Part shown: positions 3,001 through 60,774 of the stretch, one piece after another
How positions within the stretch are numbered: position 1 is the first letter of the stretch
Layout: each line of letters starts with the position of its first letter
DNA from: Marsupella aquatica
Lineage: Eukaryota > Plantae > Marchantiophyta
Length of the DNA: 64,000 nt
Reading direction: 5' to 3'
Assembly: GCA_973895155.1 (NCBI GenBank)
Contig: OZ316893.1
Location: forward strand, 9,925,660-9,989,659
Made by a program: the position numbers and the translations under genes
Notes under the pieces: model-generated
Databases searched by the model: none
What the model saw: the letters and a program-made list of their open reading frames with translations, nothing else
Told to the model about the DNA's origin: nothing

Positions 3001-6000
3001 ACGAGCAGGTTGGTACATGTTGTGCCAATGCCATAAATAATTTATTACATTTCCCTTGTTTACTTTAAAAATGTTTATATCCATACATCATTATTTCACT
3101 TGAGAATATTTAGAATGTTCCTAGATATGCATTTTAAGAAGTTTCACAACATTATCCCGCTTTTTCGTGGTGGGGGTGGGGAGCTGAGGTTTTTAAAAAT
3201 CAGTTATTTCTTGCGAGAACGGAGAACCTGATAGTCTTTAGTGTCTTGTCTTGTCTCAGCTCAGGTTGGCTAATAACTACTTAGTGATCTTTACAATTCA
3301 ATAGTCCAATGCTCCTAGGTTGCACCCTGAAGATGTCAAGAAGAGACAAGAAAACACTAGCAAGCCACAAAGATGCAAGTGAGTAAATGAAATGTGAATG
3401 AGGTAAAGAAAATCCAAGCATGGGCACGCTTACCCTTTCCCTTACCCTTACCCTTACCCTTTCCCTGCCCCTTCCCTTTCTCTTTTCCTTTTCCTTTTTC
3501 CCTCCCCTCCTTTCTCTCCTTTTCCTCTTGCTCCTTCCCACGCTCCCTCTCCTCACCCTTTTTCCCTTCAACAAAATTTAGAAAGACGAAAGGAGGAAAA
3601 AGTAACCCAATAGAAAAAGATAATTCCTCTTTATAAAGAAAAAAGCCAAAAAATGCTCTTATACCGATGTACTTTTATGCACTGCTTCCATGCTGGAGAG
3701 TTATGTTGACATTAGGTGTTGTCAGTACCTTGTACCTATTTAGTGTAATAGCAAATATATCCTTTGGAAACATTTTTAGTCAATCCAAGGATATCAAAAA
3801 CCCTGGAGTACATCTGATGCATTGCATTGTTTCTCCTTAGTATTCAAAGTTTGCAAACAGATTGCACTCGAACATTTAGGCAGAAAAGAGTATTACAGTG
3901 TTTCATTAAAATTTTTGATAAACATTGGTATAAGCCATCTGCACTTTTGTCTAAAACTAAAGATCAAGGCGCACGACTGTGGACATTGTACACGAGAGGA
4001 GGCCTGGAGGCGAAAGTAATTTTTGATGTGGGCAAGGGGCATGGGCCAATGTGACCTTTGTTCTTTTTGGACTCAACACGCCTAATGCTCATGATGAGGG
4101 TGGCTCACACAATGTTGGGGGCCCTGCTTCTCTCTTAGATTAATCTGGATCCTATATGGAGTGAAAAAGGTTGCAATTGGCTTTACAAGAACTCAAAGGG
4201 CAATCAAATACATTGTCTACTACTTCATGACAAGTAGTGGGCCCAAGAAAATGCTGACATGGAGTGATCATTTTGTCTAGAATGTTAGATCACCTACAGA
4301 CTTGATTCAACAAGTTCCAAACTTTGGTTCCCTCAGGCTTCATCCAAGGGATTTACATTTACTTTCAAAAGATTTATGGTCCAGAGTCTATCTTCAGAAC
4401 AACAAATGATTGCCCAAATGACTTTGGTGATAAAATTCCCAATGTCTTGTAAGTCCACCCTTGACCAGAAGCACCCGTTATGAATGTGTTGGGTCCTGCT
4501 GCCCACGCTATTGTGGGCTAAACATGCTTACTCAAAATGAGGGTTTGAGCATTGGTGTGGTTTGGAGACCCCTTAATTTTGAAACTGCTATATGATGAAT
4601 TCACCTTTCATAGTTTATCTTGTTAAGAGTTTTAGTGTCATATATTTTTATTTCAATGTGCCTTATCAAGGGGCAACATGTGTATAATATACATTTTTAT
4701 TTAATTTATGGACCCCTTTAATTTTAAGATTCAAGAGTATTTTGAACTCATTTTGGCAGCCCCCATATAAATTTTGATATTTGTGATTTATCAGAGATGA
4801 ACTAAAGCTCCACCACTTGAACAAAGTATTATTATGAGTGAGAGAAATAGTTCTGTTTGTGTCTTAAGTTTTTCTTATGTCTTTCTTTCCTAAGTTTATG
4901 ATTTTTATTGAAATGAGTGTCATTCATGAGGACATTGAACTAAGTGCAGACATAGTAGCATCCTTGATTGTACTTTCATTGGTCATTGTATACCAATCCT
5001 TCTAGTTATGTTTTCATATTTTATTTACTTTCAAATCACTACAAGACGCTATATGGAGAGACTTCAGGGTTAGTCACCTTTGGTCCTAAAATGTGTTTAT
5101 GTCAGAATTTGAGAGTTTAATGAAAACACTATTGAGGGAGAAAAAAATGATAGTATATACAAAATACTCTGTCCTTGAGGTTCAATGTCCAAAGGTAATT
5201 ACACTATTATAGCACAATGCTCAAACCTTGTTATGAGGGGTAGCATTTTTAGGTGGAAAAAAGCTGTCTGAAAAGTCTTGGTCACTTTTGGCAAAAGTTT
5301 TGATAGGTTTTCTCATTAGCCAGTTTCTCGCCTAGCCACAGACCCAATTAGTTAGAATTTCACTACTATCTTTAAATCTACTGTAGTAAATTTGCAAAAA
5401 TGAAATAAGAAATATTACTACTGTAGCATCTTCTCCATAGGTCACATTCGCCACCCTGGCAAAAGTGAATCCACTGTAAGAATACCAAATTACTCTCCTG
5501 AGGGGTAAGACTGTACTCGGAAAAAGCCTTTAATGTTAGTGAAAACATTCACAAAACTCTAAAACCGGCCCAAAGTGCGAGGCTTGGCCCAAAATGCGAG
5601 GTCTGAGTCTCATCTGTGCTCCAGCATGTGGGGAAAAAGCCTGCCGTTAAGCACGCCATGTGAACCATTTCTGGACGGTAATGTTCAGCTCAATGAATAC
5701 TAATCGGATGGATTATTGATGATAATTGGACTTTAGCGACCCGCCAGCAAACTGTGTGATTGCCTCTTGCTTTTCACTTGCCTTTCACTTGCCGTAGATT
5801 TTCGAGATCGACGTCGTAAAATGTCTCCCGGGATCTGGGAGCAAAGGATATTCATTTAGCTTCGAATTCTGTGCCCAGAAATGGGAACTCACCCCCATAT
5901 ATTAGTGACCACCATGCAGGTTGGTTCACTCCATATAAGTCAGACAATTGAGTTGAATTGAAGTTTGTTTTTGGTAGTATGTAAAATCATTACCTGAATT

Positions 6001-24535: not shown

Positions 24536-24920
24536 TTTTGAGCATAGACGACGATCGCAACGGCAAGCCCATGAACCATCCAACGCACAATAGTCGACAC
24601 AAGAGATACGTGGTTCACCTCCTTGAGGCTACGTCCACGGGAACACACAAGAGAGCTTTACTGAACTCTAAGCCCGTCGGCTATACCGAGTCTCCACAGT
24701 GTAAGCTCTCCTTATCTCTCAAGTGGCTCCATAACAATGAGCCTTGGTTCTACCTCTCCAAGCACACATGCCTTTTATGATATAGTGTGCAACTTAGTTG
24801 TACCTAACCACATAGTTGTACCTAATAACGTAGTTGTACCTAACCACGTAGTTGTACCAACCCACGTTGTTGTACCAACCACGTCATACCTAACCTAGAC
24901 GTAAGAGTAAATACCCAACA
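24536..24920 (-). repeat. 3' LTR of the copia element
   Basis: Direct repeat of 40237-40621, with the plus-strand terminal TG mutated to TT. Contains five 17-18-bp tandem units (TAGTTGTACCTAACCACG-like). Confidence 0.96.
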
Positions 24921-24932
24921 ATCTTCCCCTTG
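24921..24932 (-). promoter_or_regulatory. Polypurine tract
   Basis: Minus strand reads ...AAGGGGAAGAT immediately before the 3' LTR. Confidence 0.85.
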
Positions 24933-25110
24933 ACTCTGGTCTAGGGGAGAGTAATACTGCCAATGTATATGATCCCTCAGCGGGAAGTTCTGGACAAAAA
25001 CCAAACCGGTTTCCCTCTCTAACTAGAGCAAACCAAAACTAAGCCATAGCCTAATACATAGGAATGAGGAAGAGCATATATCAGTAATTACAATGAATGT
25101 TAAGAAAACT

Positions 25111-25996
25111 CTACTTGTGATGCAATTGCAAAACCTGCAATACGTCACGGTGTCTAGAGAAACTCTCCAAAGGAATCACTTTGGTAAATGCGTCAGCCGG
25201 GTTGAGTTTACCATCAATCTTGACTAGCTCAAACAAATTATCAGACACAGCCTGCCTGATAAAATGGTACCTGACGTCAATGTGCTTCACTCTGCTGTCC
25301 ATCACCTGGTTGACAGCAAGGTGGAGCGCACTTTGACTATCACAATGGAACTTCACATTCCCCTGTGGCAATCCCATTTCAGTGATAAATCTATCCAACC
25401 AAATCGCTTCCTTTGCTGCTTCCGCAGCTGCAACATACTCCACTTCTGTAGTAGACTGAGTAATACACTTCTACAAAGTAGACCTCCAACTTATGCATCC
25501 ACCGCCAAGTGTGAACACGTATCCTGTTGTTGATCTCCTTCGGTCCAAATCTTGTCCATAGTCAGAATCAACATAGCCAATCATTGATTTAGCATTCTTT
25601 GCATTCGCATCAAATAAAATACCATGATCCACGGTACCCTTCAAGTACCTGATAATCCACTTCACTGCTTCCCAGTGTACCTTCCCTGGATTCGACATGT
25701 ACCTGCTTACCTTGCCCATAGCCATGGCAAGATCAGGTCTAGTGCAAGTCATCAAATACATGAGACTCCCCACTGCCTTGTCATATGGAACCTTTGACAT
25801 CAACCCCTTCTCTGTGTCATCCGTAGGACAGAACGCTGATGATAACTTGAAGTGTGGAGCCAACGGGGTACTTACTGGCTTGCTATTCCCCATATTGAAC
25901 CTTGCAATTACCTTCCTCGCATAACTGCTCTGCATCAACCATAGCTTGCCAGCCTCCAAGTCCCTAGTGATCTCCATACCCAAAATCCTCTTAGCT
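25111..25996 (-). pseudogene. Copia RT C-terminus and RNase H (3' part)
   Basis: AVGSLMYLMTCTRPD, GYVDSDYGQDLDRRRSTTGY, KHIDVRYHFIR and NPADAFTK, with one in-frame TAG at 25471-25473. Removing the CACTA plus one TSD restores ...MKDLGPAKRILGMEI... Confidence 0.95.
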
Positions 25997-26641
25997 CACT
26001 ACAACACTACCGACCCCTTTTGCGAACCCCGTCCCATCGCAACTAACAAAGGACCAAATTATGAAATTCCGGCGTTTGCAAAACGCTACGCATCGCAACC
26101 CTTTCGCATTCTTTGAAACCCACAGCTTCGCAATCGGACTTTTGCAACCCCTTCGCAACACCTTCGCACACTGCGAAACTTATTTTATCGCACATAAATC
26201 ACATTTATGCGATCTCAACAGACTCTTTATCGGTTTGCGACGCGCTCTGAACTATAACTTATTTGCGAAGCTGTTGTCTTGACAATTCTGTTGCCATTCA
26301 TATGGTATCGCATAACTGCGTCAGTCAGGGTGTCGCACAATTGCGGAACCAAAAGTATCGCAATGTTCCAATACTCAATGTATGGCAAGTTTGCGATAGT
26401 ATGGCGTTCGCATGTGTTTCGCAAGGATAGTTTGAGGGCTGGGTTTTGTATATTTGGGTTCATAATTGGGTTGGGGTCTTATTGCTCCACATGAAGATAC
26501 CAAAGCAAAACTTTATATATGCCAAAAATCCTTGAATGTACAAAAATTAGGGTTTTCTAAAACCCTATGGGGTATCAAATACCAAGACACTGTCCTTTGA
26601 CTAATCCATATGCCATATGGAGTGAACTACATCTGCATCCT

Positions 26642-28705
26642 CTAGAATGGAGCCCGCCTACTCCTCTTTGCTGGCCTCTTCCCCTTGTCCTTCTTGCTTT
26701 GGGCGGGACGAGCTGGACGGGAGGGGGGTGGTGGTGGTGGTGGCGGTGGTGGTGGTGCCTGCTGCTCCTCCCCATCTAGCTCATCCTCATCATCGTCATC
26801 ATCCTCATCATCATCCTCTTGGTCTCCTGGTGTGCTAGGTGTGGCAGCACTCCCTGCCCCTCTGGACCCACTCGTGGTGGCCCCGGTAGTGTCCCCATCA
26901 TCAGCGCCGCTATCCTCCTCACTGCTATCCTCACTCCCCTCCTGCTCCTCCTTATCCTGCTTCCATGTCACAAGGTTAATTCGGGTTTAGGGTTAATAGG
27001 AAAAATGTATAAACCTTATAAATGGAATGGGTGCGGGTTTAGAAAGGGTACTACAAATCACTCACACTAGCCAACTCTGCATCAACCAACTCAAAGAGAT
27101 GTCTGGCCCCATGCTCTGCCCCTATCTCCATCTCCTTTGTTGTTATCTTGCGGCGGTACCTCTTATACTACCACAAAAAATGAAACACCAAAACATAAGG
27201 GGCCCGGGTTAGTAACTAAGGGTACTTAAGCAAAAAAGGAATCCTAAAAAGGGTAAAAAGGGTACCCTAACCAAAAAAAAACCCCATTACCCTAACAAAC
27301 ATTTGTCACTCGACACTAAACGTTTTTCAAAATGAAACAAGCTTTGCGAAACTCCCACCTTCGCAAATTCAAATATATTTAAGTTTGCAAAATAGACTGC
27401 GAATCGGATTGCTTCGCAATGGCTTCGCAAACCTTACGGGAAAAAGGTTATAATAGAGTTTGCGAAACAATTGCGAGGCAACCCGCTTCGCAATTGTTTC
27501 GCAAACTGTGCTCTTAAAAAAATCCAAGAAATGGCTAAGGCACGCAATGTGTCAGGGTGACCTAAAACGAAAGGGGAGGCCATAAGGGGTAAAGCAGAGG
27601 TCTGCGAGGGGCATTGCAGGCAAGCAAACAACAATTGAAGGCGAAGGAAAAGAAGCAGGAAAGGAGGGGAGAGGACTCACGAAGGTTGCTTTCAGGCCGG
27701 GAAGTCCACCTTGCCCCATCTTGTGTGTGGTCTTGGGGCGTTTGCTGACTCGGTCTGCTGCAAGGATGAACTTCTGGGGTGGTGTCCCCACTTCATCCAC
27801 GATGTGCTGCAGCTGAGAGACCTTCTCAACCAATGCCTTGAGGTCTTGGTCTGACTTCCCGGCCTGAAGTGCCTTGGCCTCATTCTCCTTCCAGAATTGG
27901 AGGTCCTTGGCTGCTTTCAGCTGCACCTCGACCTTATAGAACGCGTTCCACACATCCTCTGTGAATTGCACTGGCCTCCTCACATTCCTGTACTCCTGCA
28001 AGCTTGCCAGGTAGGCCCTCACCTTCCTCCTATCATGGTATCGTGCTTGAGACATTGAATTCGAAATTCTATCTACAAGCCACTGGTCATCAATCTCTGC
28101 TCCATTTCTGAATGAATCTTTGACCTGAGTCATTACTTTCCTCTGCTCTGCTCTGCTTAGTTTCCCCCACTCAACACCTCGTGCAAAGCTAGTCCTCACA
28201 GCAAGCCTGATAGTGCTCTTTGGCCCAGTGTAGGCCAACTCAGTAGGAATGCCCTCAACCAAGGCAATCAATGGCAGCTTCTTCCTCTCTTCCTCCTTTT
28301 TCCGCTGCGCCTCACGTTGTACTCGAATCTCATCTCATTCCTCCCTTCTCCTCTTCTTTTCGAGGGCTGCAGGAGAGAGTACTCCTACCTTAGCCCTCTC
28401 CTCCTTCTTTCGTTTCTTCTCTCTGGCCTTCTCCTCAACTGCAGCCTTTGCCTCTTTCTCCCTCTGAGCCTGCCCTGCTGCAACCCCGGGGTTGCAAAGC
28501 TTGCCCTAGAATTTCACTCAAAGAAGCAATCCTAGCTGGTGTACTCAAATCCAAATGGCTCAGCTGTGTGGCATTGAGATGCTCGGCCATCAAATTCGTC
28601 CATTGATCGATTACTCTCCTCATTCCTGTTCCCTCCATTGTCATTGCCACTCCCACTCCCACTTGCCCCTGCCCCATCCCCTCCACGCCCTCCACTAGAA
28701 TCCAT
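26642..28705 (-). pseudogene. CACTA ORF2 (TnpA / Ptta-En/Spm-like), 3 exons, frameshifted
   Basis: Predicted exons 28705-27681, 27167-27066 and 26956-26642 (GTGAGT donors, phase 0). Motifs RPVQFTEDVWNAF and RVSKRPKTTHKMGQGG resemble Transposase_24-type proteins. Acidic/poly-Pro/basic tail. The 5' part has two apparent frameshifts and a TGA. Confidence 0.7.
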
Positions 28706-30070
28706 AGCTATCCAACACCAAGCGCGCGCAAGCTCTCCTCCTGCCCTCCCTCACTTCAAAAAACGTCGAATGGGCCTCGTAACCCGGCGGGAAGGTCTGA
28801 ATGCCCAGACAAAACACATTTGCGACGCAGTCCGCATCGCAATTTGTGAATCAGCCCGCTTCGCAACTAGTATCTCAACTTTCCAAAACCAATGCGAAAC
28901 CACACGCTTCGCAAAGCCTTCGCAAAGCTGTAGAGACGCGAAAAAACGCTCTCGGGCTCTGTTTTTCCGAAGCTGTTGCGAAACATTTTGCTTCGCAAAT
29001 AATGTGACCAAATTCTGAAGCAGGTTGCGAAGCAGGTCGGTTCTCAATATCGTGGCAATTCCTGGCAATTTTTTTTTTCACATTCTTTCCCTCCTCCTTT
29101 TGTTTAGGCCATGTAAGTTATACTATGCCCTTTTGTGTAATTAAGAAATTCCGCCGTTTCAAATCCCGGCTTTTGTTAGGGTTGGGTCTTGGATGAAGCT
29201 GGTTTTTTTAGGGGTTAAAAGCGAGATTACCAGTCAAACCTTCCATTTTTTAAGCTATACATGGTGTGGGTGTAGGCTAATTTTGATAAGAGTTGGGTTT
29301 TGGTTTAAAATTAATAAGTGAGGAAAGGGTTTAGGATTAAAGTTGGGTTTGGGTTTAGGGTTTAAGTCTTTAATTTTGGGTTTAAGCAGGGTTTGCATTT
29401 ATGGTTGTAGGCTTTTAGGGTTCAAGCAAGGGTTTAGGGTTTAAAACAAAAGAGAGGAAGGGGATTGGGAGTGAGGGTCTAGGTTTTTGTAATAGGTCAG
29501 AGGTTTGGGGGTGAGGGTTTGGAAAAGGCAAAGCAAGGTTAGATGAGATTAATGTTTTAGTTGTTTTACCATGGGTTTTATGGGTTTTAATGGGTTTTAT
29601 GGATCTTTTGGGTTTTAATGGTTTTTCCATGGGTTTTATGCTAACAAAGGAGGAGGAGCTATGACAACTTGCAGGGTGCGGCACTTTTGCATGAATTGAT
29701 ACTAGCTAATGCATATGCATCATGAGAGCCTGGGCATCTGGAGGTACGGACTAAAATAGATGGGTCTAGTTAGGCTTATTCATGTAATTAAAATTTTTGG
29801 TTCCCACTATCTATAAAGAGGACATGTATGTAAGGTGTTCGCTTGTGTACTTGCAGCTTTTCTCATACTTCCAGATTCGGTTCATTATTTTAGAGCCACA
29901 AGACCTATTGGCACCGCTGAGCCTGGGTCTCAAAAAGGTATTTTTTAGTGTTCCTTTTGTGTTTGGTTTCATGTCATCATTACTTGAGAACTTACATTTG
30001 TCCAGCTTGATATTGTGATGTTATTTGGTAATAACCCCTAACTTGCAAATTATACATCTTTGTAGGGGCA

Positions 30071-31221
30071 ATGTCTTCATCTTCTGAGATCTCCACCACA
30101 GATTCTTCCTCCTCCGATGAAGATATATCACCTCCTCCTCAACCTCACACGACTGCACCTCCTCCTCGTGGTCCACCCCGTCAGCTTTGCCAATGTGCCA
30201 AATGCGTGGGTCAGGTTTCCCAAAAGTCCTATATATGCACCCAGCATATTGAGAGATATGGACGTTACGGACGTCATACAACAGGGGCTTCCTCATCCCA
30301 TGTGGTAAGTGTTTACGCCTTAGTTTCTACCCTATTTCCACATCGCAATGGTGAAGGTTTTTAATTTCACACCTCTTGTTGTTTGTTTTGGTTTGGGTGG
30401 AATAGGTATCTAGTAGGCCTAGACCTGCGGCATCAGCACCTTATGTCCCATCACAAGGTGTTCTAGATGCTATAGGCAATGCATTCTCACAAGCCTTGGG
30501 TCTAGCAACAGCCCCCTCCAGTCCTAGGGCAGTTGGGGGTGAGCCTGTTGTCCCAAGAGGGAGAAAGCGTTCCAAGAGACGGCCCCGAGGGGATACTGAT
30601 TTGTACAAGGTAGTGCTTACCGGTAGGTGGGGTGATTGTGAGTTTACTGCCAGATGTGTTCCTATCATCAAGGACTGGGATCCCCAGACTCTTGGTTTGC
30701 CACAAGAGCTTTCCTATGGTGAGGAGGTAGAGGTTTGGGGAAGACGTTGGGTTATCAAACCTTCCACACTTGGGGATAGACATGGCTATGGAGTTTTTGC
30801 TTGTGAAGACATCATTGTGGATACCGAGAGTGGTAGTGGTGGACGCGGTCGAGAAGGACCTACGTTGTTTCCTTATGGTGGACCCATCTACAAGAGAAGA
30901 CATTGGAACATGATCCTTGCACAACATCCTGAGTGGAAGACTTATGCCTTGGAGTTAGATACTTTTGATGGAAACACTAGGAGGTATAGTGAGCAACGGG
31001 TGATAGATGGGGACCCCATACGAACTGGGAATATAGCTGGTTTCATAAACAGTACTGTGGGGACTCGCCCCAAGCGTAGGCAAAATTGTGAGTGGGTTTT
31101 CATTGAGGGTCCTCCACCAGCCCCTTATGGCCAGACATATCATCATGACCATTGTCTGGTTGTAGCTACTAGGACCATTCACTCAGGTGATGAGTTGTTT
31201 ACTCACTATGTGTGGGATTAG
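30071..31221 (+). CDS. Transposon-encoded SET-domain protein: CxCxxC-H Zn motif plus a compact SET fold, 349 aa predicted
   Basis: Exon 30071-30304 (GTAAGT donor) and exon 30406-31221 (AATAG acceptor) join in frame with no stop. SET motifs: IKPSTLGDRHGYGVFACEDI, PYGG, VIDGDPIRTGNIAGFINS, QNCEW, VVATRTIHSGDELFTHY. Confidence 0.8.
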
Positions 31222-31364
31222 AAAATGACCATACACATGGCGTTTGGCCACATTTTGTATTTACACCAGTACCGATATTATTTCATGTTTGCACACCCCC
31301 ATATATTCTTCTACATGTTGTAACTATTTACTTTGTAACTTTCAATTGTTTGCATTGTTTTTAG

Positions 31365-34300
31365 AATGTGCGACCCTCTCAAAATATGTTACCGCGGAGA
31401 TTGAGAGCAGCATATCGGGAAATGGGTATGCCGGAAGAAGGACAAGGCTCTGAGTCACATTCCTCATCAAGTGACAGTGGAAGCAACAACCCTGATCGCA
31501 ATGTACCCAAAACATATGAACAGGTTATTGATGACCAAGATAGAGCCATGGATGATTTTATGGTTGATTGGTTTGGTGTTGACGTCCCTGGTGATGATGC
31601 TGAGGTGTCTGCTGATCAAGGAGGTCATGTGCCCCCCAATGATCCACGACCAAGACATACCCCCGAGGGACAGCGCCAATGGGAGGAAGCAGAGGAACAT
31701 GCCCGAACTCCTATCTATGAGGGTGCTCGTTTGAGTCATCTTTCTGCTATCTTGGGGTTGATGAATCTACAGGCCAAACACAAGGCAAGCAATGCCTTGT
31801 TATCTGATATGTTTGCACTTTGCCATGACCTTATGTTACCTTCTGGCAATGTGTTGCCAGGAACTTGGAAGGAGGCCAAGCGTGTTCTCTCATCAATTGG
31901 CATGGACTATCATATCATTCATGCATGTGTGAATGATTGCATGTTATTTCATGGGGCCGATGAGAAGAAGACACAGTGTACTGAATGTCATGAGCCACGG
32001 TATGACCCCAACATGATTACAAAGAAGGTGCCAAGAAAAGCTGTTCGTTGGTTTCCCATCATTCCTCGGTTGTTGCACATGTACAGGTGTTCTAATTTGG
32101 CAGAGTTGATGGTATGGCATAAGACTCATCGATCAGAGCCTGGTGTTATGCGACTGCCAATTGACTCTCCTGCAGTCAAACATATTGAGGAAACATGGCC
32201 AGACTTTGCACATGATCCTCGTCATGTGAGGTTGGGATTGGCATCTGATGGGGTTAGTCCTCATGCCCTTGGAGGCAAGGGAAGACCTACATCAGTTTGG
32301 CCTGTGGTTGTGATGAATTACAACCTTCCACCATGGCTATCCATGAAGAAGGGGTTCCTCTTGCTGTCTTTGATTATTCCAGGTCCAAAAAAGGTGAAGA
32401 ACTTTGACACTTATTTGGCACTATTGATTGGAGAACTCCAAAAACTGTGGGGTGGAGTGTGGGCATATGATGGCAGGAAAAATACAGGAGGCATTCCACG
32501 TGTATTTAAATTGAGAGGGGTAGTTTGTTGGACAATGCATGACTATCCTGGTAAGATGACTTTTTGACCATATGCCACCCTTCTTTGATATGCTCTTTAA
32601 TATACTTGTTTGTCATGTGACAACCTAACATTTAGTCTGGTTTTATTTTTGGTGTAACCAGGGTTTGGCTTTGTCTCTGGATTGCAAACTCAGGGGTACA
32701 AAGCTTGCTCCACCTGTGGTCCACAATTGCAAGATATGGCAATTTGGTCCCCATGGCTTAGGAAGATTGTTTACATTGGGCATACAAAGTTTCTTCCGAT
32801 GGGGCATGAGATGAGGTCTGACCCACTTTTATTTTCCTCCTTTGACATGCCCCTTGGTGATATGCGAGAAATTCCGGAACCAACAACTTTTGGGCATTGG
32901 AAGTCACTAGCTAATAGGGTGGCAGACCCTGATGATCCCCTCACCTTTGATGGTACTGGGTTGACGAGGTGGAGTATACTAGCCAGTTTGCCCTATTGGT
33001 CAGAGTTGAAGATCCGCCATCTTTTAGACCCCATGCACATAGAGGGAAATGTGGGGAAGGCGTTGATAGCTCATTTTTATGGGGAGAAGGACACTAACTT
33101 CAGGGAGGCATGTGAAGAGTTGGAAATGCATCTAGATGTATGGGTACAAGTTGATCCTGCCACAGGTTTGGAACATCGTCCTTCTGCTCCTTGGGTGCTT
33201 AGTGTTGGCCAAAGACGTGAATTCCGGAATCGTATAGGGGAGATGCGGTTTCCTACAGGCTATGGTGCCAATTTGAGGAAAGATTTTGGGATGGAGGACA
33301 ATCACAAATGGCCACGGTATCTCAAGACACATGACTATCACCGCTTATTGCAGCATATATTGCCAGTGGCAATTATAGGGTTGGGGACCAAAGAAGTGCA
33401 AGATGCCATTTGGTCATTGGGTCGTTTGTTGAGATGGATATGCTCAAAGGAGATATATGTGGAAGAGATTCCTGGAATGGAGGTATTGGCTGCTGAGGTG
33501 GTTTGCAAGTTGGAGAAGGCCCTCCCTCCTTCCTTCTTTGATTGTCAAGTTCATTTACTTGTGCATCTTGTGAGGGAGGTTGCCATTGCTGGTCCAGTTC
33601 ATTGTCGATGGATGTACTGGCTTGAGCGTTACATGTAAGTCTTGAAGGCTTATGTACGTAACCGTGCACGAGTGGAGGGAAGCATAGCTACAGGATACTT
33701 GGCTGCAGAGAGCATGTTTTATTGTACATAGTAACATCTTGGCCACCATTGATCGGACTTTACCACGTACTTGGATGGAGGAGAGGCAAGAGGAGGAGGA
33801 CCGTTTAACAGGAGCAACAAAAACATGCATGCTTACATCAACAGAGTGGACACAATTGAATACATTCATGTTGAGTAATAGCAATGTCATGGATGAATGG
33901 AGGGAGTTTTATGACAATGCCAAAAGAATGAGTCAAAGAGCAAGGATTTTTCCTAAGTTGCATGAGTTTATGAAGGAAAAGTTGGTTGAGTTGGATGGCA
34001 TTTTGGCACAAGGAGGAGATGTCTCACAGTTTCCTACTATGACAAATGACATGCGGACATGGCCCTTTGAGAGTGGTAACATCCAAGACGACCATGTGGA
34101 CCCAAGGGAGACACTTCAGGTTTCACTAGTTCCTAACCTTGTTTTCCATATTCATGTACTACTACTTAAGATATAGTAATCATTTTACTTAAGATAAGTG
34201 TGTTTTTCTCTTTTGGTATGAAAGGTTCCTCATAACATGATTAGTGTTTTTTGTGTAGTAGTAACAATATATGGGTCTTGTTAATTTCAGGATTTCTTCC

Positions 34301-34720
34301 CTTGATGAGAAGAGGGCTCGTACTTTTGATTGTGGAGTTCAAGGGCAGTTTTGTCAGGACTCCCGGAGTAGCCGACATGACAGGAACATTGTTCGTGATG
34401 TTGTGCCACACTATGGGAAGATAGAGGAGATTTTGGTGGTCTCATATGACAACCAATCTAAGTTTGAGGAGTATGTCTTCAAGTGCAAGTGGTTCAAAGT
34501 GAACCTTGTTGGTAATAATCGCACTGTACTCCAAGATGAAAGTGGGTTTACACGGTTGAGGACAAGTGCCACTAGTTTTCAAGCATCTCATTGGCAAACG
34601 TCAGAGCCATTTACTTTCCCATCTCACTTGGAGCAATGTTTCTACGTTCCATACCCCTTAGACCCAGAGTGGTCACTTGTCATCACATATGTGCCACGGT
34701 CTCGTTCCATTTTTGTGTAG
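31365..34720 (+). pseudogene. CACTA TnpD/Tnp2-type transposase (Transposase_21, DUF4218- and DUF4216-like regions), disrupted
   Basis: IHACVNDCMLF, CTECHEPRY, RHVRLGLASDGVSP, SVWPVVVMNYNLPPW, LLLSLIIPGPK, HDYPG, LDPMHIEGN, LKTHDYH, PPSFFDCQVHLLVHL, RWMYWLERYM, FKCKWF. Introns at 32551-32661 and ~34120-34290. Premature TAA at 33636-33638 and frameshifts near 33727 and 34058. Confidence 0.93.
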
Positions 34721-35652
34721 ATGTAGAGGACATTGAAGGTGACCAAATGTGAGAGACACTTATGGATATTTAAACCAAAAATCTATATCATGGATTGTTC
34801 ATGTTGTTTCTTAATTAATATTTCATACACTATTAGTGTGGTAGGTATTTTCATTTTGGACTCCTACTTTCAAAAGAGGTCATGCATATAAGTGACATGG
34901 GTACTCCCTCCCTTATCCCTCCTCCCTCTTTGAACCCAAACTCTCCTTCCTCTTCCAAAAACTCCATAGCTTTTTCTCCTCCCTCCCTCTTCGCTAAAGT
35001 CTCTTCTATTTTTAGTAAACCCTCTTTGGACTCCCTACTTCCTCCGTCCCTCATCCACCTTCCAACTCCCTTCCTCCCTCTTTCACCTTTCACCTCCCTC
35101 CCTCCTCCTCCCCCATTCAAACTCTAACCTAGATGCACACACAAGTCTAACATAAACGTTTGCGAACTGTTTGCGAAACTAAACAAATCCCAACCAAATC
35201 GCAATTCTGCCATTTAAACCGTTTCTCAATTATTCCATACTATACGCTTCACTATTTTGCGATATCCAGACCATCTCACCTTTACCATCCACATCATTTC
35301 GCACATTTGCCATACAAACCCATCGCAAATTGTTTGAAGCTAACCTTTTCGCAAACATCCTCCAATACTAATTGTTTCGCATCATTAATGTTACCGTGGT
35401 TTCGGACTTTCGGAGTGGTCGCGGAGCCTTCGTAATTTGTTTTGTAATCTCTGTAGTTTCGCAAAATATTGTGATACAATAAAGTTCCCAAAATGTTTGC
35501 GATGCAAATCGCATGGAAGACCAAAGTTGCGATACCATAAGTATCGCAAATTGCGATGCATATTGAGTCATCAACGGTTTGAAGCATCTGGAATCGCAAA
35601 CGTGTATCCGGACGCAAATGAGCTTCGCAAAAGGGCAAAATATGTTGTAGTG

Positions 35653-38600
35653 GCTGGCCCTAAGTCCTTCATCTTAAACTCTGCACTAAGCAGTGCCTTG
35701 AGCTTAACAATCTCAGACCTATCCTTGGCTGCAATTAGCATATCATCCACATAAAGTACTAAAACAATGAACCCAAAGACAACATTCTTTACCGGTTTCA
35801 AATACACACAAGGGTCAAATACACTTATGTGAAAACCTTGTGACCGAATCCAATCGTCAAACCGCTTGTTCCACTGTCTTGGTGACTGCTTCAACCCATA
35901 CAAGGATTTCAGCAATCTGCAAACCAATTCCTCCTGTCCTCTCTTCACAAAACCTAGCGGTTGTCTCATGAAGATCACCTCTTCCAATGTGCCATAGAGG
36001 AAAGCTGTGACAACATCCATCTGATCTAGCAGCAGACCAAACATTACACCAAGTACACACAATAGTCGTATTGTAGAGTACTTAGCAACTGGTGAGAAGA
36101 CCTCATTGTAATCCACACCTTTCTCTTGTGTGAATCCCTTTGCTACCAACCTAGCCTTGTAGACCTTCGATCCACCTCCTATGGAATTATCCTTCAGCTT
36201 GTAAATCCACTTGCTGTCCACCACTTGCTGACCCTTAGGCAGCTTAACAAGCTCCCAAGTTTTGTTGTCCTTTAGTGATTGCATCTCCGTTTGCATTGCT
36301 GCAGTCCACTTCTGCTTCTCCTTTGAAGCACTTGCCTCATGAAATGAAGAAGGTTCCCCTTCTTCCAAAATTAACGCATCACCCTCATCATCAGCTGCAA
36401 AATCATCCTCTTGCAGTTGAGATGAATCAACCCACTGTCCATACCTTGGTGGAGCGCGTACAGTGCGACCAGATGTTCTTCTAGCCGATGACTCCGATTG
36501 ATTTGCGTGTGCTGGTACAATTTGAAGCTCAATAGCATCCACTTGCTGCTCACCAGCATCAACAAACTCCTCTGGTTCCTCTGGCACAGGAACCAGCTCC
36601 ATAATTGGAGCAACTCCTTCTCTCCGGTCATGCACCTCATAACCAATCTCCCCCTCAACGAGATCCAGGATAGGAGATTTTCCTTTGTCAGTACGGGAGA
36701 CCTGAGTATTCTCCCCCTCCTTCAATAATCTGGATTCATTGAAGGAAACATCCCTACTGACAACGAGCTTACAGGCAATAGGATCCCATAGCCTATAGGC
36801 TTTCACACCACTCTGGTACCCAAGAAAAACACATTTCTTGGAGGTAGGATCCAACTTGGTCCTATTCTGCTTCGGTGTGAGAGCATATGCATCACTTCCA
36901 AAAACTACCAAGCCATGATAGTCTGCTTGCCGCTTATAGCGCATCTCAAACGGCGTTTTGAAATTGATAGCACTAGAAGGAGAAAGATTTACCAAATAAG
37001 CTGCGGTATTGACAGCTTCTGCCCAAAATTCTTGTGGTAAACCTGATTGGCTCAACATACTCCGTGACCGCTCCAATAGTGTACGATTGAGCCTCTCAGC
37101 GACACCATTCTGCTGTAGAGTATAAACTGTGGTAAGATGACGAGTTATCCCCTGTTCTAAACAGTACTCTTCAAATTCCATTGAAGTGTACTCCCCGCCG
37201 TTGTCTGACCTCAGACTCTTCACCCTTGTATCCAAACACTTGATCGTGTTTCCAGTCTAATTCTCCACCTGGGCCTTCCACTTCTTAAAAATGGACAAGA
37301 CATCAGACTTATGCGTCATAAAATAAATCCACACAAATCTTGAGTAATCATCAATAAATGATACATAGTACAACTTTCCAGAGTGTGAGGGAGTCGGGGA
37401 TGGACCCCACACGTCACTATGTATGTACTCAAGAACCGCTTTGGAACGATGAGTTCCAACACCAAAAGCACGACGATGCTGCTTTCCAAGAATGCAATGC
37501 TCACAAAACTCTAATTTACAAGATTGCAAATCAGAAATGAGTCCATTCTTCCGTAAGATAGCCAAACCCTTCTCACTCATGTGGCCTAGCCGTGAATGCC
37601 ACAGTTGAGTCATCTGCTCGTGAGACTTGGTTACATTGGCCTCTCCACATACAGTATTGCCCTGTAACAAATACAAATTCTTTTGTCTACTCCCTTTCAA
37701 AATCATTGTCTCTCCCGACCTGACTTGAAGTTCACCATCAATAACGCTCCATTGATAACCATTTGAATCCAACACACCGAGTGAAATCAGATTCTTACGC
37801 ATGCCAGGTACATACCTGACTCCGGACACTGTGCGCACAGCGCCATCAAACATTTGAATCTTCACAGACCCAATTCCCTCAATTTGATAGGAGTGATCAT
37901 TTCCCATCAGAACTGAACCGTTTGAAACAGAGTAAGAACTGAAAAACTCACGAATGTAACAAATATGAAAAGAGCAAGCACAATCAAGAATCCACACATC
38001 ATCTGCTCTCCTAGATGACGTGCACAGGGCATACCCCTGGCTTCATAAAACATACTCATCATTGAGTAAATCAGCTTCTCCATCAGCCCTAGCCACATTT
38101 GCCGATGAAGTTTCTGCTGCCTTTCCCTTACAGTCTCGCTTGAAGTGTCCAACTTGGTTGCACTTCCAACATGTCACCTGCCTCCTCTGAGGGGATTTAC
38201 CCTTGGACTTAGATCTAGATTTAGATCTAAACTGGGTTCTACGGTCCCCAGTTGGTCGCTGCATATTCCTCCCACGGTTAACATTGAGGGCAGCACCAGA
38301 TGATGAAGACTGTGACGTGATGTGCATCTTCTGCTGAAGATCATCACTAAGCAGAGAACTTACCACGTCATTATATGAAATGGTATCCCTATCACGATGC
38401 AACAACACTCGTGATAGGGACTGGTAAGATGGAGGCAATGAACTAAGAAGCTGTAGAGCCTTCGTCTCATCATTCAAAGTCTCCCCAAGGTTTTCCAAGT
38501 CAACGACCATGTCGTTGAAAGCATCCACATAGTCTTGCAACTTTGTACCGGATTTCTTCATCCTGAAACTCATTAGTTTGTAGGAAGTGTAGAGCCGGTT

Positions 38601-39083
38601 CGACAACTCCTTGCGGTGATACTTGCTCTGCAATTCCGTAAACAAGGACATGCAATCCTTATGTGCACCCAACTGCTTGATGATGGGAGGCATGAGATAG
38701 AGTGTAACACACCACACTCCCTGCTCCTGCATGCGGTCCCATTGTTTCTCATCAACATCGTCTTCACGAGGGCTCAGCAGTTGGCCCATCCCTGACGCAT
38801 AGAGCACTCCCTTCACCTGCTTCTCCCATAGCAAGTAGTTAGAGTGCCCATCATACTTTGTCACTTCATACTTGGGTCCCCCAAGCTTGAAAGTCCCCAT
38901 CTTTTTCTTTGGCACTACCGTGAGCTCCGGTAGTAGTACTGCTTCCTCCACCACACGCCGCACCGGTGATGGTATCGGTGTCACGTGCTCTTCCTCCTGC
39001 TCCTCTCTCTGCCCCTGAAACCTCCGCGGTGATCCTCGTGCTTCAAGTTCCACGTCTTCAAAAAACTCCTCCGAATCACTCAT
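35653..39083 (-). pseudogene. Copia gag-protease-integrase-RT (5' part), with in-frame stops
   Basis: Gag with CCHC knuckle CWKCNQVGHFKRDC; protease WILDCACSFH; GAG-pre-integrase LWHSRLGH...CEHC; integrase HSDVWGP, LRSDNGGEY and QQNGVAER; RT YKARLVAKGF, LYGLKQSPRQW and YVDD. In-frame stops at 38043-38045 and 37257-37259. Confidence 0.95.
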
Positions 39084-40222
39084 ATGAGAAAATCACAAAA
39101 AATGTTGTTTTTCACAACTTCTCAAAAAACTCGAAACTCAACACCGCCGCGTAGCCCACAAAGCTAGGAGTCCAATACTGAAAACCAAAATCAAAATCGA
39201 AATTTAACGAAAAAGTTATTCAAATTTCGGTCGAGGTGGGTAAAACCTTGGGAAACTCCCTCGTTTTGACCACCTCAAGGAATAACCGAAATACCAAGTA
39301 CAACCCGTTGTCCAAATTGCAATGTGATTGGTGCACCGCGTTGCCAACTTCAATGGCTATGACCTCGCCGAAAAATAACCAAAAAAATTACCGTTCGGCG
39401 GATGAAATCTTTGTCGGACGGTCAAAAAATAGCTCTCTGGTTTTTTGGAATATTCTATGACCCTTGTACAGGCCCTGTGGGAATTTTGGAAGAACAATCG
39501 AGGGGCTGACAAGTGTCCTCGAACCCCCAAAACCCCCTACGACCCTTCGTCGTTGAAATCTGGTCGCGCGCGCAGAAAATACACACGGCAGAATGTACCC
39601 CTCGACACCAAACGCAAGATATCTCACTCGGGTTTTGACGAAATCAAGATCTGATTTCAGATTTGGAAACTAGACTCCGAGGCGGTGAAGATCGATAGAA
39701 GAAGCACCCAAAACGAGGAAAGAACGAGGGAGAAAAAAATTGGTAAAGATGACAGATTTCTCTCAATTGCCATAGCCAATTTCGAATCAGTTTTTCAAAG
39801 AGAAAAAAATGGTACCTTGTCAACAACGAATGTTGATCAATTGCACTTGGTGCCGTCACCAAGTCCAACAAGGTAATTGATTTTGCTTAGCCTTCCTCTT
39901 TGCATCAAAGAGCCAATCCTGGACTCAAAACAATCGTCTTGCCTCAATCTCTCCGTTGAGTCAAAACACTTGATGCTTCTCCCTCCGAGTTGATTGCCAA
40001 CTTTCTTCACAAAATCCAGAACGACGAAAACTTAGATCTCTCTGCACCACGAGCTCTGTTCAGCGATTTCTTCACACCGTTAGAAAGCTCTTGCCCTGAT
40101 CTATCCGTTGAGCCCATAAACTCCAAGTTCCATGCGACGGAACTCCGGGAAATCCACCGACACTCAACGCTGGAAAAACCGTCATGAAATCCCGTCACGA
40201 ACACATGTCACCTCCCAAGCAT

Positions 40223-40234
40223 GCTCTGATACCA
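40223..40234 (-). promoter_or_regulatory. Primer-binding site (initiator tRNA-Met)
   Basis: Minus strand reads TGGTATCAGAGC, 2 nt downstream of the 5' LTR. This is the canonical plant tRNAiMet PBS. Confidence 0.93.
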
Positions 40235-40236
40235 AT

Positions 40237-40621
40237 TGTTGAGCATAGACGACGATCGCAACGGCAAGCCCATGAACCATCCAACGCACAATAGTCGACA
40301 CAAGAGATACGTGGTTCACCTCCTTGAGGCTACGTCCACGGGAACACACAAGAGAGCTTTACTGAACTCTAAGCCCGTCGGCTATACCGAGTCTCCACAG
40401 TGTAAGCTCTCCTTATCTCTCAAGTGGCTCTATAACAATGAGCCTTGGTTCTACCTCTCCAAGCACACATGCCTCTTATGATATAGTGTGCAACTTAGTT
40501 GTATCTAACCACATAGTTGTACCTAATCACGTAGTTGTACCTAACCACATAGTTGTACCTAATCACGTAGTTGTACCAACCACGTCATACCTAACCTAGA
40601 CGTAAGAGTAAATACCCAACA
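40237..40621 (-). repeat. 5' LTR of the copia element
   Basis: TGTTG...CAACA termini. About 10 differences from the 24536-24920 copy. Adjacent to the PBS. Confidence 0.96.
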
Positions 40622-40787
40622 AACTATAAATAGGAGATCCCCGCTTAAAAATTTCCCGCTCATTTTTTCTCGCTCCGTATCCTCTTCCTCTCGACGAATG
40701 CACACTGTCTATACAAATTCGTATTCCCTGAAAATCAGATTTGACTAACAGGTGAGAATCTTTATGGAGATGGCGAGGACGAATCCC

Positions 40788-58635: not shown

Positions 58636-59399
58636 GTTGTTGTGGTGGTGTTCAATAACCCTTGCATTGGACATAAGAGACCCAAGATAATGTCCCAATG
58701 CCCTGACCCTCGCTTCCAAATACCGCATCATACTGTCCAAGCACAACAGAGTGATAGGATTTTTGTTTCAAATTTTTAGAGAGAAGAATGTTTAAATATT
58801 TATAGTGAAGTTTTTTGCAAATTTAAAGCTAATCACAAATTTAATGCCCTGAATATTTTAGTGACTCTCCGTACCCCCTACCCGAATTATAAAAGGAGAA
58901 CTTGTCTCCAAGACTTTTCTTTTTCACATTCTTTTCTTCTAGAGTGAGACTTGGCTCCACAATGTCAGGAAAAAAGTTCTAAAAATGGTGAAACCTGGTG
59001 ACTCCAGGTTTTGTCATGGACAGTGGCACTCTAAGAATGGCCTGGTGCAAGGCCTTATGTAGGGCTTATGGGGGCTTGTGGCTTTTGGTTACCCCTGCAA
59101 AGGAGGGTGCCTGTATATGCAGGCCTTGTACAGGGCTTAGGGAGGGCTTGTGGTATTTACAAATGGCCTTGTGTGAGGCCCTATGAAGGGCTTATGAAGG
59201 CTTGTGGCATTTGGGAACCTGTGCGCAGGAGGGTGACCATGAGTGCATGGCAGGGAAGCCCCGGTTTGGACTTGCCCGGCAAATAGGCCGTTTTAAGGCC
59301 GTCAACCGGCAAGCCGACACCCGGTCTCTCCCGGTCGGCATCATCCGGTCCCGGCCCGAGTAAATCCGGTCCCGGCCTGAGTACTCCCGGTCCTCTTCC

Positions 59400-59879
59400 C
59401 TCCCGGCCCCGGACCCTAAACCCCCCCCGGCCCGGACCCCGGATCCTTCCCCCTCCCGACCCCGGACCATTCACCCTCCCGGCCCCGGACCCTAAACTTC
59501 CCCCGGCCCGGACCCTTCACCCTCCCGGCCCGGACCCTAACGCCCCCCCCCCGCCCGGACCCTACAGCTCTCCCGGCCCGGACCCTAAAGCCCCCCCCCC
59601 GGCCCGGACCCTAAAGCCCCCCCCCCGGCCCGGACCCTACAGCCCCCCCGGCCCGGACCCTAAAGCTCCCCCCCGGCCCGGACCCTAAAGCCCCCCCCCC
59701 AGCCCGGACCCTAAACCCCCCCTCCCGGCCCGGACCCTAAAGCCCCCCCCCCTCCCGGCCCGGACTCTAAAGCCCCCCCCCGCCCCGGTCCCTAATTCCC
59801 CGCCTCGGTCCCTAAAGCCCCCCCGGCCCGGCCCACCCCCGCCTCGGGCGGGGGTGGGCCGGGCCGGGGGGCTTTAGGG
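59400..59879. repeat. GC-rich minisatellite (GGCCCGGACCCTAAAGCCCCCCCC-like units) ending in a long hairpin
   Basis: More than a dozen ~25-30-bp units. 59810-59879 is a near-perfect inverted repeat. Confidence 0.9.
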
Positions 59880-60774
59880 TTAGGTCGCGAGAGGAGGGCA
59901 GCCGCCGGGAGGGATCGGGCTCGGCCACCCAGGGTCGGCTTGCGAGGTGGGGGGGGGGCAGACCGGGACCGGGGCTATAAAGTGAGGAGGTCTCCTCACT
60001 TTCTCTCATTACTAACTTCTCAACTAAGTTTGCTTGTTTTGTAGGAGAAGCCTTTGGTAAGTTTTTCTTGCTTTTGCTTATGTTTTGCTTAGTTTTGAGT
60101 TTAGTTCACTAGTTTTTGAATTGTTTTGAGTCTTTTTTTTGCTATGCTTTGCCATGTATGATTTTAACATTTAGTTTTAATTTGGAGGGATATTAGTGTT
60201 CTCACGTATGCGCATGCTTGGAGCTTATGCTTGGCATGTGGTATTTTGTATGAGAGAACCTAATATCGCCTTAACAGTTTAGTGTGATTTGTGAATTGAG
60301 TGGAGTATTTTCTAGGATAGAGATTTTCATGTACGCATGCTTGGAGTTTCCGCTCGGCATGTGGTACTCTGCATGGATATCTCGATTCCTTGTAAATATT
60401 TCCACAACATTTACAAATGACATCTAAACTATAGGTTTCACATAGATTGGAATAGGAATGTAACAACTTGAAGGAAAAGACATCTTTTGTGCGCATGCTT
60501 GGAGTTTCGGCTTGGCATGTGGTATTTCACATAGTTGTCTTTCCCCTTCATCGTTGTTACTTTCAAAGTACTAAACAAAGGAATAAAAAATTGAACAAAT
60601 ATTAAAATTTCATTGCTTGGGTATTATTGGTACCAACACAAAGTGTGAAATGACATTTCAGGATTGTTGATCCAGCTTTATTGTACTTGCATCATCCATA
60701 CCCTCGGCAAGCAGCCAACACACTCCGTAAGCGCCTATTCTTTGTCCTACAACTTGTTGTGGTTACTTGACAAC

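Follow-up and report, generated by a model that had tools for sequence, protein, structure and literature searches.

The 64,000-nucleotide window of Marsupella aquatica DNA analyzed here carries a bryophyte-type CACTA transposon, in which a conserved exon encoding a SET domain separates the first coding exon from the body of the transposase. In the reading that we favor and consider probable, the first coding exon (exon 1), which encodes a Cys/His module, is shared through a splice switch. Use of a near acceptor would give a 349-residue Cys/His-SET protein, whereas use of a far acceptor would give the transposase. The features of the element are listed in Table 1.

Table 1. Features of the CACTA element, in window positions. 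L001 is the one related locus found in metagenome contigs.
Feature	Position	Strand	Details
Whole CACTA/EnSpm element	25997-35652	.	9656 bp; 10-bp perfect terminal inverted repeats; 3-bp target-site duplication (GCT)
Left subterminal TCGCAA/TTGCGA cluster	26019-26424	.	Defined by hexamer count and repeat families
Further TCGCAA/TTGCGA clusters	27344-27505, 28819-29030, 35160-35630		
Main open frame of a second, divergent gene, probably multi-exon	27552-28334	-	260-codon frame
Predicted short non-coding 5' exon	29875-29937	+	45 of 63 bases identical to L001; no ATG inside
First coding exon (exon 1)	30071-30304	+	ATG at 30071; 234 nt, 78 codons; CxCxxC-x13-H; phase-0 donor GTAAGT
Intron to the proximal SET acceptor	30305-30405	+	101 nt; 39% GC, 43% T; 111 nt in L001
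SET exon	30406-31221	+	271 codons plus stop (31219-31221), intact; Pfam SET
T-rich gap, predicted to hold the SET 3' UTR and, for the distal acceptor, the polypyrimidine tract	31222-31364	+	143 nt; 33% GC, 41% T
Transposase exon (TnpD core, Transposase_21)	31365-32550	+	Pfam E 1.4e-37; first in-frame Met at 31386; out-of-frame ATG at 31366
Rest of transposase (end of Transposase_21, DUF4218, DUF4216)	32662-34720	+	Broken in this copy

The element has both the CACTA...TAGTG termini and the 3-bp target-site duplication of a CACTA transposon, and its three TnpD-type domains (Transposase_21, DUF4218, and DUF4216) all score above the curated Pfam cut-offs. It interrupts the pol frame of a Copia element, and this host frame contains one stop once the CACTA element and one copy of the duplication are removed. 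The long terminal repeats of the Copia element are 97.4% identical over 387 bp, suggesting that the CACTA insertion is fairly recent. The hexamer TCGCAA/TTGCGA occurs 61 times in the window, 41 times inside the element, where it is clustered near the two termini as well as around the minus-strand gene. Repeat families D1, D2, D5, D7, and D8 match the subterminal clusters, and the element thus displays the subterminal repeats of a CACTA transposon. The minus-strand frame shows no convincing Pfam family and no match among 120 stored transposase-family proteins; its gene, by a general resemblance, is a possible TnpA-like partner. The transposase is not uninterrupted, as it would be in an autonomous copy. 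It contains a stop (33636-33638) and a frameshift near 33730, exon 1 and the SET exon being intact, and this copy can no longer make the whole transposase.

The sequence-only reading had proposed an exon at 30071-30304 ending at a phase-0 GTAAGT donor, and its coordinates proved exact. It had also identified the encoded module as a transposase-associated domain, which is borne out by the spacing of the Cys/His residues and by similarity to TnpD profiles, but not by the Pfam PF13963 scan. Indeed, no Pfam family matches exon 1 at E ≤ 10, and the exon does not reach the gathering score of PF13963, a family touched weakly by four of 15 exon-1 relatives (best E 0.025). All 15 of these relatives nevertheless retain the three Cys and the His. 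A CxCxxC..H motif is present within the first 260 residues of 80 of the 118 stored TnpD relatives, and 61 of these 80 have the 13-residue spacing seen in exon 1. When scored on a profile of TnpD N termini, exon 1 reached 11.0 bits, a value attained by none of 2000 shuffled sequences (1859 reported, maximum 8.4). Profile-profile comparison with the same N termini gave a probability of 88.3% (E 2.9e-6) over 33 columns. Exon 1 was also the top scorer on the profile among the 1293 six-frame segments of the window, although narrowly (E 0.041 versus 0.048 for an unrelated segment). The transposase exon has no CxCxxC..H motif of its own, and a search with the transposase N terminus in the Atlas led to unnamed clusters and to PF13963, the latter with a score below 0.9 that was not counted. 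We read the exon-1 module as a diverged homologue of the TnpD N-terminal Cys/His module rather than a formal member of PF13963. Judging from its motif, the module may bind zinc.

The SET exon matches the Pfam SET family with an E-value of 4.8e-6 (27.4 bits, cut-off 22.4), and 42 relatives were found among 2066 candidates, the named ones being from Calypogeia (best, 73%), Sphagnum, and Riccia, which by itself points to a likely bryophyte host. Since the fold predicted for the whole exon was too poor (mean pLDDT 43.9), the core only was used (mean pLDDT 64.5). The best Foldseek match of this core was MLL1 (E 7.3e-6). Structural comparison gave a Z score of 9.7 with EZH2 (rmsd 2.6, 117 aligned residues), 8.9 with SET8, and 6.4 with the SET domain of SETMAR, and viral SET domains matched the fold similarly. 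In the Atlas, the core was grouped with SET clusters, and a sequence search of solved structures using SET profiles returned nothing meaningful. An assignment of substrate by fold rank was rejected: MLL1, SET8, and EZH2 are effectively tied, and all solved SET subfamilies share ∼15-25% identity with the core, with none standing out. The GYG, YGG, Asn, and ELFxHY motifs are conserved in 43-47 of 44-47 aligned rows, the Tyr of ELFxHY being kept in 43 of 44. The exon has INST in place of the NHS of most SET domains, so that the His after the Asn is replaced, and there are no post-SET cysteines. The 349-residue Cys/His-SET protein is predicted to methylate lysines.

Two acceptors in phase with exon 1 had been proposed, one at 30406 yielding a zinc finger-SET protein of 349 residues and one at 31365 running into the transposase frame, and both were confirmed at the level of reading frames. 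The near AG ends at 30405, and the joined frame stops at 31219-31221. The far AG ends at 31364, is preceded by 95 nt free of any other AG, and joins exon 1 in an open frame to Transposase_21. An in-frame stop is found at each acceptor itself, and neither the SET nor the transposase frame therefore extends upstream. A strict acceptor rule (the 40 nt upstream clear of further AGs, a T content of ≥55%, and C or T immediately before the AG) singles out just the near and far acceptors from the 3882 AGs on the plus strand of the window, its thresholds having been chosen after the sites had been seen; under looser settings, both sites are among the 7-30 selected from these 3882. No AATAAA-like hexamer was found, within one mismatch, in the 143-nt gap that separates the SET stop from the far acceptor. 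In plants, a missing hexamer of this kind is weak evidence, and the 3' end of the SET transcript may be formed in this gap. Read-through of the SET stop into the transposase was rejected, because the gap shifts the frame and contains an in-frame stop.

The near join is well supported. The exon-1 motif was present in 78 of 252 stored proteins, which are redundant predictions gathered largely with SET and exon-1 queries, and these 78 consist of 42 unspliced read-throughs and 36 spliced models. A Val encoded by a GT codon stands exactly where similarity ends in 40 of the 42 read-throughs, so that the donor is conserved. All 36 spliced models, from Calypogeia and Sphagnum, continue from exon 1 into SET, with two later jumping from within SET into the transposase; being redundant predictions that usually give one isoform, they fall short of RNA-level proof of the near join. 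Among the members listed in cluster look-ups, joined exon 1-SET proteins all came from annotated assemblies and none from sequencing-run contigs. In the Marsupella copy, the first Met of the SET exon is residue 169, downstream of the first SET motif at residue 127, which indicates that splicing to exon 1 is needed for a whole SET domain.

A scan for related DNA identified one locus (L001) from 235 candidate stretches in metagenome contigs, whereas scans of genome contigs and viral contigs found none. In L001, exon-like blocks lie upstream of exon 1, which ends at a phase-0 donor; an intron and a SET exon in phase come next, and 219 nt past the SET stop there is an acceptor-like end resembling that of the window. 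The expectation that the splice sites would be conserved in relatives thus held for the donor and the near acceptor. For the far acceptor it extends to this acceptor-like end in one truncated contig, which stops 6 bases beyond it. The sequence of the gap is not conserved (44% identity), although its acceptor-like end is matched. Introns flanking the predicted short 5' exon are 45-53% identical to L001, a lower level than within the exon itself. A further donor is predicted after 29743, and the acceptor ahead of exon 1 ends at 30065; the short exons in this upstream region are probably non-coding. The sequence-only reading had overlooked both these exons and the broken state of the transposase. 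Comparison of the coding exons with L001 gave a dN/dS of 0.245 for exon 1 (0.105 for its core, residues 33-78) and of 0.30 for the SET exon (0.235 for its core and 0.96 for its first 30 codons), rough values from a single pair with a dS of 0.4-1.6. The ratios of 0.1-0.3 show purifying selection on both exons. The link between SET and transposase is also seen from the transposase side. Among 150 long transposase relatives, the best two come from Riccia and are models with SET sequence just upstream, which makes the linkage a family trait.

That the SET exon is nested within the first coding intron of the transposase, as the sequence-only reading had it, agrees with its position between the Cys/His module and the transposase body, whereas the junction that this implies is found in none of the 36 spliced models. 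Nor was an exon 1-transposase model found by searches targeted at exon 1 (13 and 17 hits) or by cluster look-ups of 30 proteins. We infer the far join from its phase, from the strength of its acceptor and the probable counterpart of this acceptor in L001, and from the N-terminal location that the module commonly has in TnpD proteins. Its main rival, which we regard as rather unlikely, is that SET permanently appropriated the original first exon. Translation of the transposase would then begin at 31386, its own Met, the transcript either skipping exon 1 or being initiated within SET, and its Cys/His module having been lost or being supplied in trans by the SET protein. Besides the missing junction, this is consistent with the length of the product, since the far join would separate the first Cys from the HAC motif by 224 residues, more than in any of the 50 measurable relatives (92-203, median 179). 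Riccia model P0043 keeps the Met of MLPRR, and L001 has an in-frame ATG just past its acceptor, but Riccia model P0044 has no Met at the corresponding place. In the Marsupella copy the out-of-frame ATG at 31366 precedes the Met, which disfavors an independent start on a transcript using the far acceptor. Split-gene layouts are described for EnSpm elements (PMC13547354), and 38 of the 118 TnpD relatives have no motif in their first 260 residues, many of which may be partial models. Against permanent capture of exon 1 by SET, on the other hand, most TnpD proteins carry the module at the N terminus, and the phase of the far acceptor fits that of exon 1, for which there is one chance in three.

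Two other arrangements were considered. In a bicistronic message, exon 1 would always be spliced to SET, with RNA running through the gap and the transposase translated by re-initiation past the SET stop, with or without removal of a small intron in the gap. The absence of a poly(A)-like hexamer speaks for this, as does the gap being intron-like in composition and length. We nevertheless consider it highly unlikely, as the best donor in the gap of either copy matches at most 5 of 9 consensus positions and eukaryotic ribosomes re-initiate poorly once they have translated a frame of 349 codons. A fusion in the manner of SETMAR, in which a donor within the SET exon leads to one Cys/His-SET-transposase chain, seems barely credible. 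Models P0028, P0173, and P0043 do pass from SET into the transposase, with exits close to the same NC/NY/NV residues, and the window has a donor at 31088 matching 7 of 9 positions. This donor is in phase 1, however, whereas the acceptor is in phase 0; L001 has no GT at its site, the entry points of the three models into the transposase differ, and the chain would drop the ELFxHY motif with its nearly invariant Tyr. The shared-exon switch is the reading that we retain.

The most likely history under this switch is that a SET exon was captured into the first coding intron of a TnpD gene, by which the passenger would have acquired, at no cost, an N-terminal module together with a promoter and a start codon. 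Splicing would probably use the near join by default, with the far join as a minor, regulated event. By analogy with other element-encoded factors, the likely benefit would be altered chromatin on the element, i.e. anti-silencing. Whether exon 1 would steer SET to the DNA of the element is a matter of speculation. Nothing was found that links the module to the TCGCAA clusters, and it is a different module from the DNA-binding domain of Spm, which is the tandem helix-turn-helix of TnpA-like proteins, apparently restricted to flowering plants (bioRxiv 10.64898/2026.08.24.746577). Tethering through protein-protein contacts is as plausible as DNA binding, and among titles and abstract openings no account of PF13963 function was found. 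The fullest version of the idea, a moss and liverwort CACTA family that switches by splicing between transposase and chromatin writer, with the shared module bringing the enzyme to the element ends to lay down a protective histone mark, is in our view quite unlikely.

Chromatin enzymes of their own are known from few transposons, and in the papers cited below the SET cases are described from sequence only. A nested SET exon kept in mosses and liverworts would offer a compact and testable case of counter-silencing by a histone-type writer. If the splice choice is real, the element would be able to make its own candidate chromatin-marking enzyme; if the exon is shared, it provides a handle on the transposase-associated domain, since whatever this domain binds would serve two different enzymes.

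Other transposons also carry SET genes. These are described on HarbingerS and on MuDR elements of oomycetes (Phytophthora) (PMC12730594), on Helitrons, and on red-algal Plavaka elements of the EnSpm/CACTA superfamily, as PAG2 (both bioRxiv 10.1101/2025.02.11.637652). The Marsupella element resembles HarbingerS, MuDR, and Helitrons in its SET methyltransferase-like cargo, but these belong to other superfamilies and hosts, and the accessible text of those sources does not mention exon sharing with a transposase. Plavaka is closer in having a SET domain on an element of the same superfamily. As described there, however, PAG2 is an accessory gene beside the transposase locus and includes a DNA adenine methylase domain, whereas the SET exon here is nested in a plant-type TnpD gene. 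This nested layout is unusual and was not found in print, as searched by titles and abstract openings for bryophyte CACTA elements outside Repbase and subscription journals. VANDAL elements encode VANC anti-silencing proteins with demonstrated sequence-specific action (bioRxiv 10.1101/2025.02.11.637652); as an element-encoded factor that changes its own chromatin, VANC may be a functional analogue of what is only predicted here.

The closest parallel for the splice switch is within the CACTA group. Two proteins are obtained from EnSpm elements, either through alternative splicing or because the genes are split (PMC13547354), splicing of CACTA transposases has been treated as a possibility (PMC4158355), and in maize En/Spm and Arabidopsis EN/SPM3 a single gene is alternatively spliced to yield TnpD and TnpA (PMC13547354; bioRxiv 10.64898/2026.08.24.746577). 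The Marsupella element shares with En/Spm and EN/SPM3 the CACTA ends, the 3-bp duplication, the TnpD domains, and one unit predicted to yield two proteins. It differs from En/Spm in that the second product is a SET protein instead of a helix-turn-helix TnpA, and in that SET lies upstream of the transposase core, the predicted product ending before this core. Outside transposons, SETMAR/Metnase and CSB-PGBD3 are host genes that took in a transposase. SETMAR resembles the present case in having SET beside a transposase, and CSB-PGBD3 in an alternative choice of terminal exon involving a transposase. The direction is reversed here, since a mobile element took in a SET exon, and SET and transposase are predicted to be alternatives rather than parts of one fused protein.

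The two short blocks that lie 5' of exon 1, the first coding exon of the SET/transposase unit, are 71-73% identical to L001, a related contig with the same exon 1-SET layout, whereas the flanking introns are only 45-53% identical. Judged from this alignment, both blocks have the look of non-coding exons whose sequence is constrained. Also upstream of the unit is a G/T-rich tract (29280-29640) containing short, telomere-like GGGTTT(A)-like repeats.

Features of the CACTA element and of its Copia host (window positions)
Feature	Position	Strand	Remarks
Upstream block 1	29720-29743		L001 counterpart of the two blocks, about 300-497
Upstream block 2	29875-29937		
Second gene of CACTA element	26642-28750	minus	head-to-head with SET/transposase unit
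Copia element, host of CACTA insertion	24538-40625		LTRs 97.4% identical

The Copia element is divided in two by the CACTA insertion, and stops are present also in its gag-pol frames. Elsewhere, a further CACTACAA start at 5037, for which a simple pattern search gave no matching end, may mark one terminus of another CACTA element, and a GC island is found at 59001-60000 (69% GC versus 35-52% in the rest of the window).

Clustering at 90% identity places 360 members together with P0004, an exon 1-SET protein from Sphagnum; this SET-carrying CACTA transposon may therefore raise the number of 'SET domain-containing' genes counted when Sphagnum genomes are annotated.

The main frame of the minus-strand gene is flanked on either side by TCGCAA clusters. 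A family match was sought for this gene and none was found. Its K-R-x4-H-x-x-G stretch is reminiscent of TnpA/Transposase_24, a likeness to which comparison with 120 transposase-family proteins lent no support.
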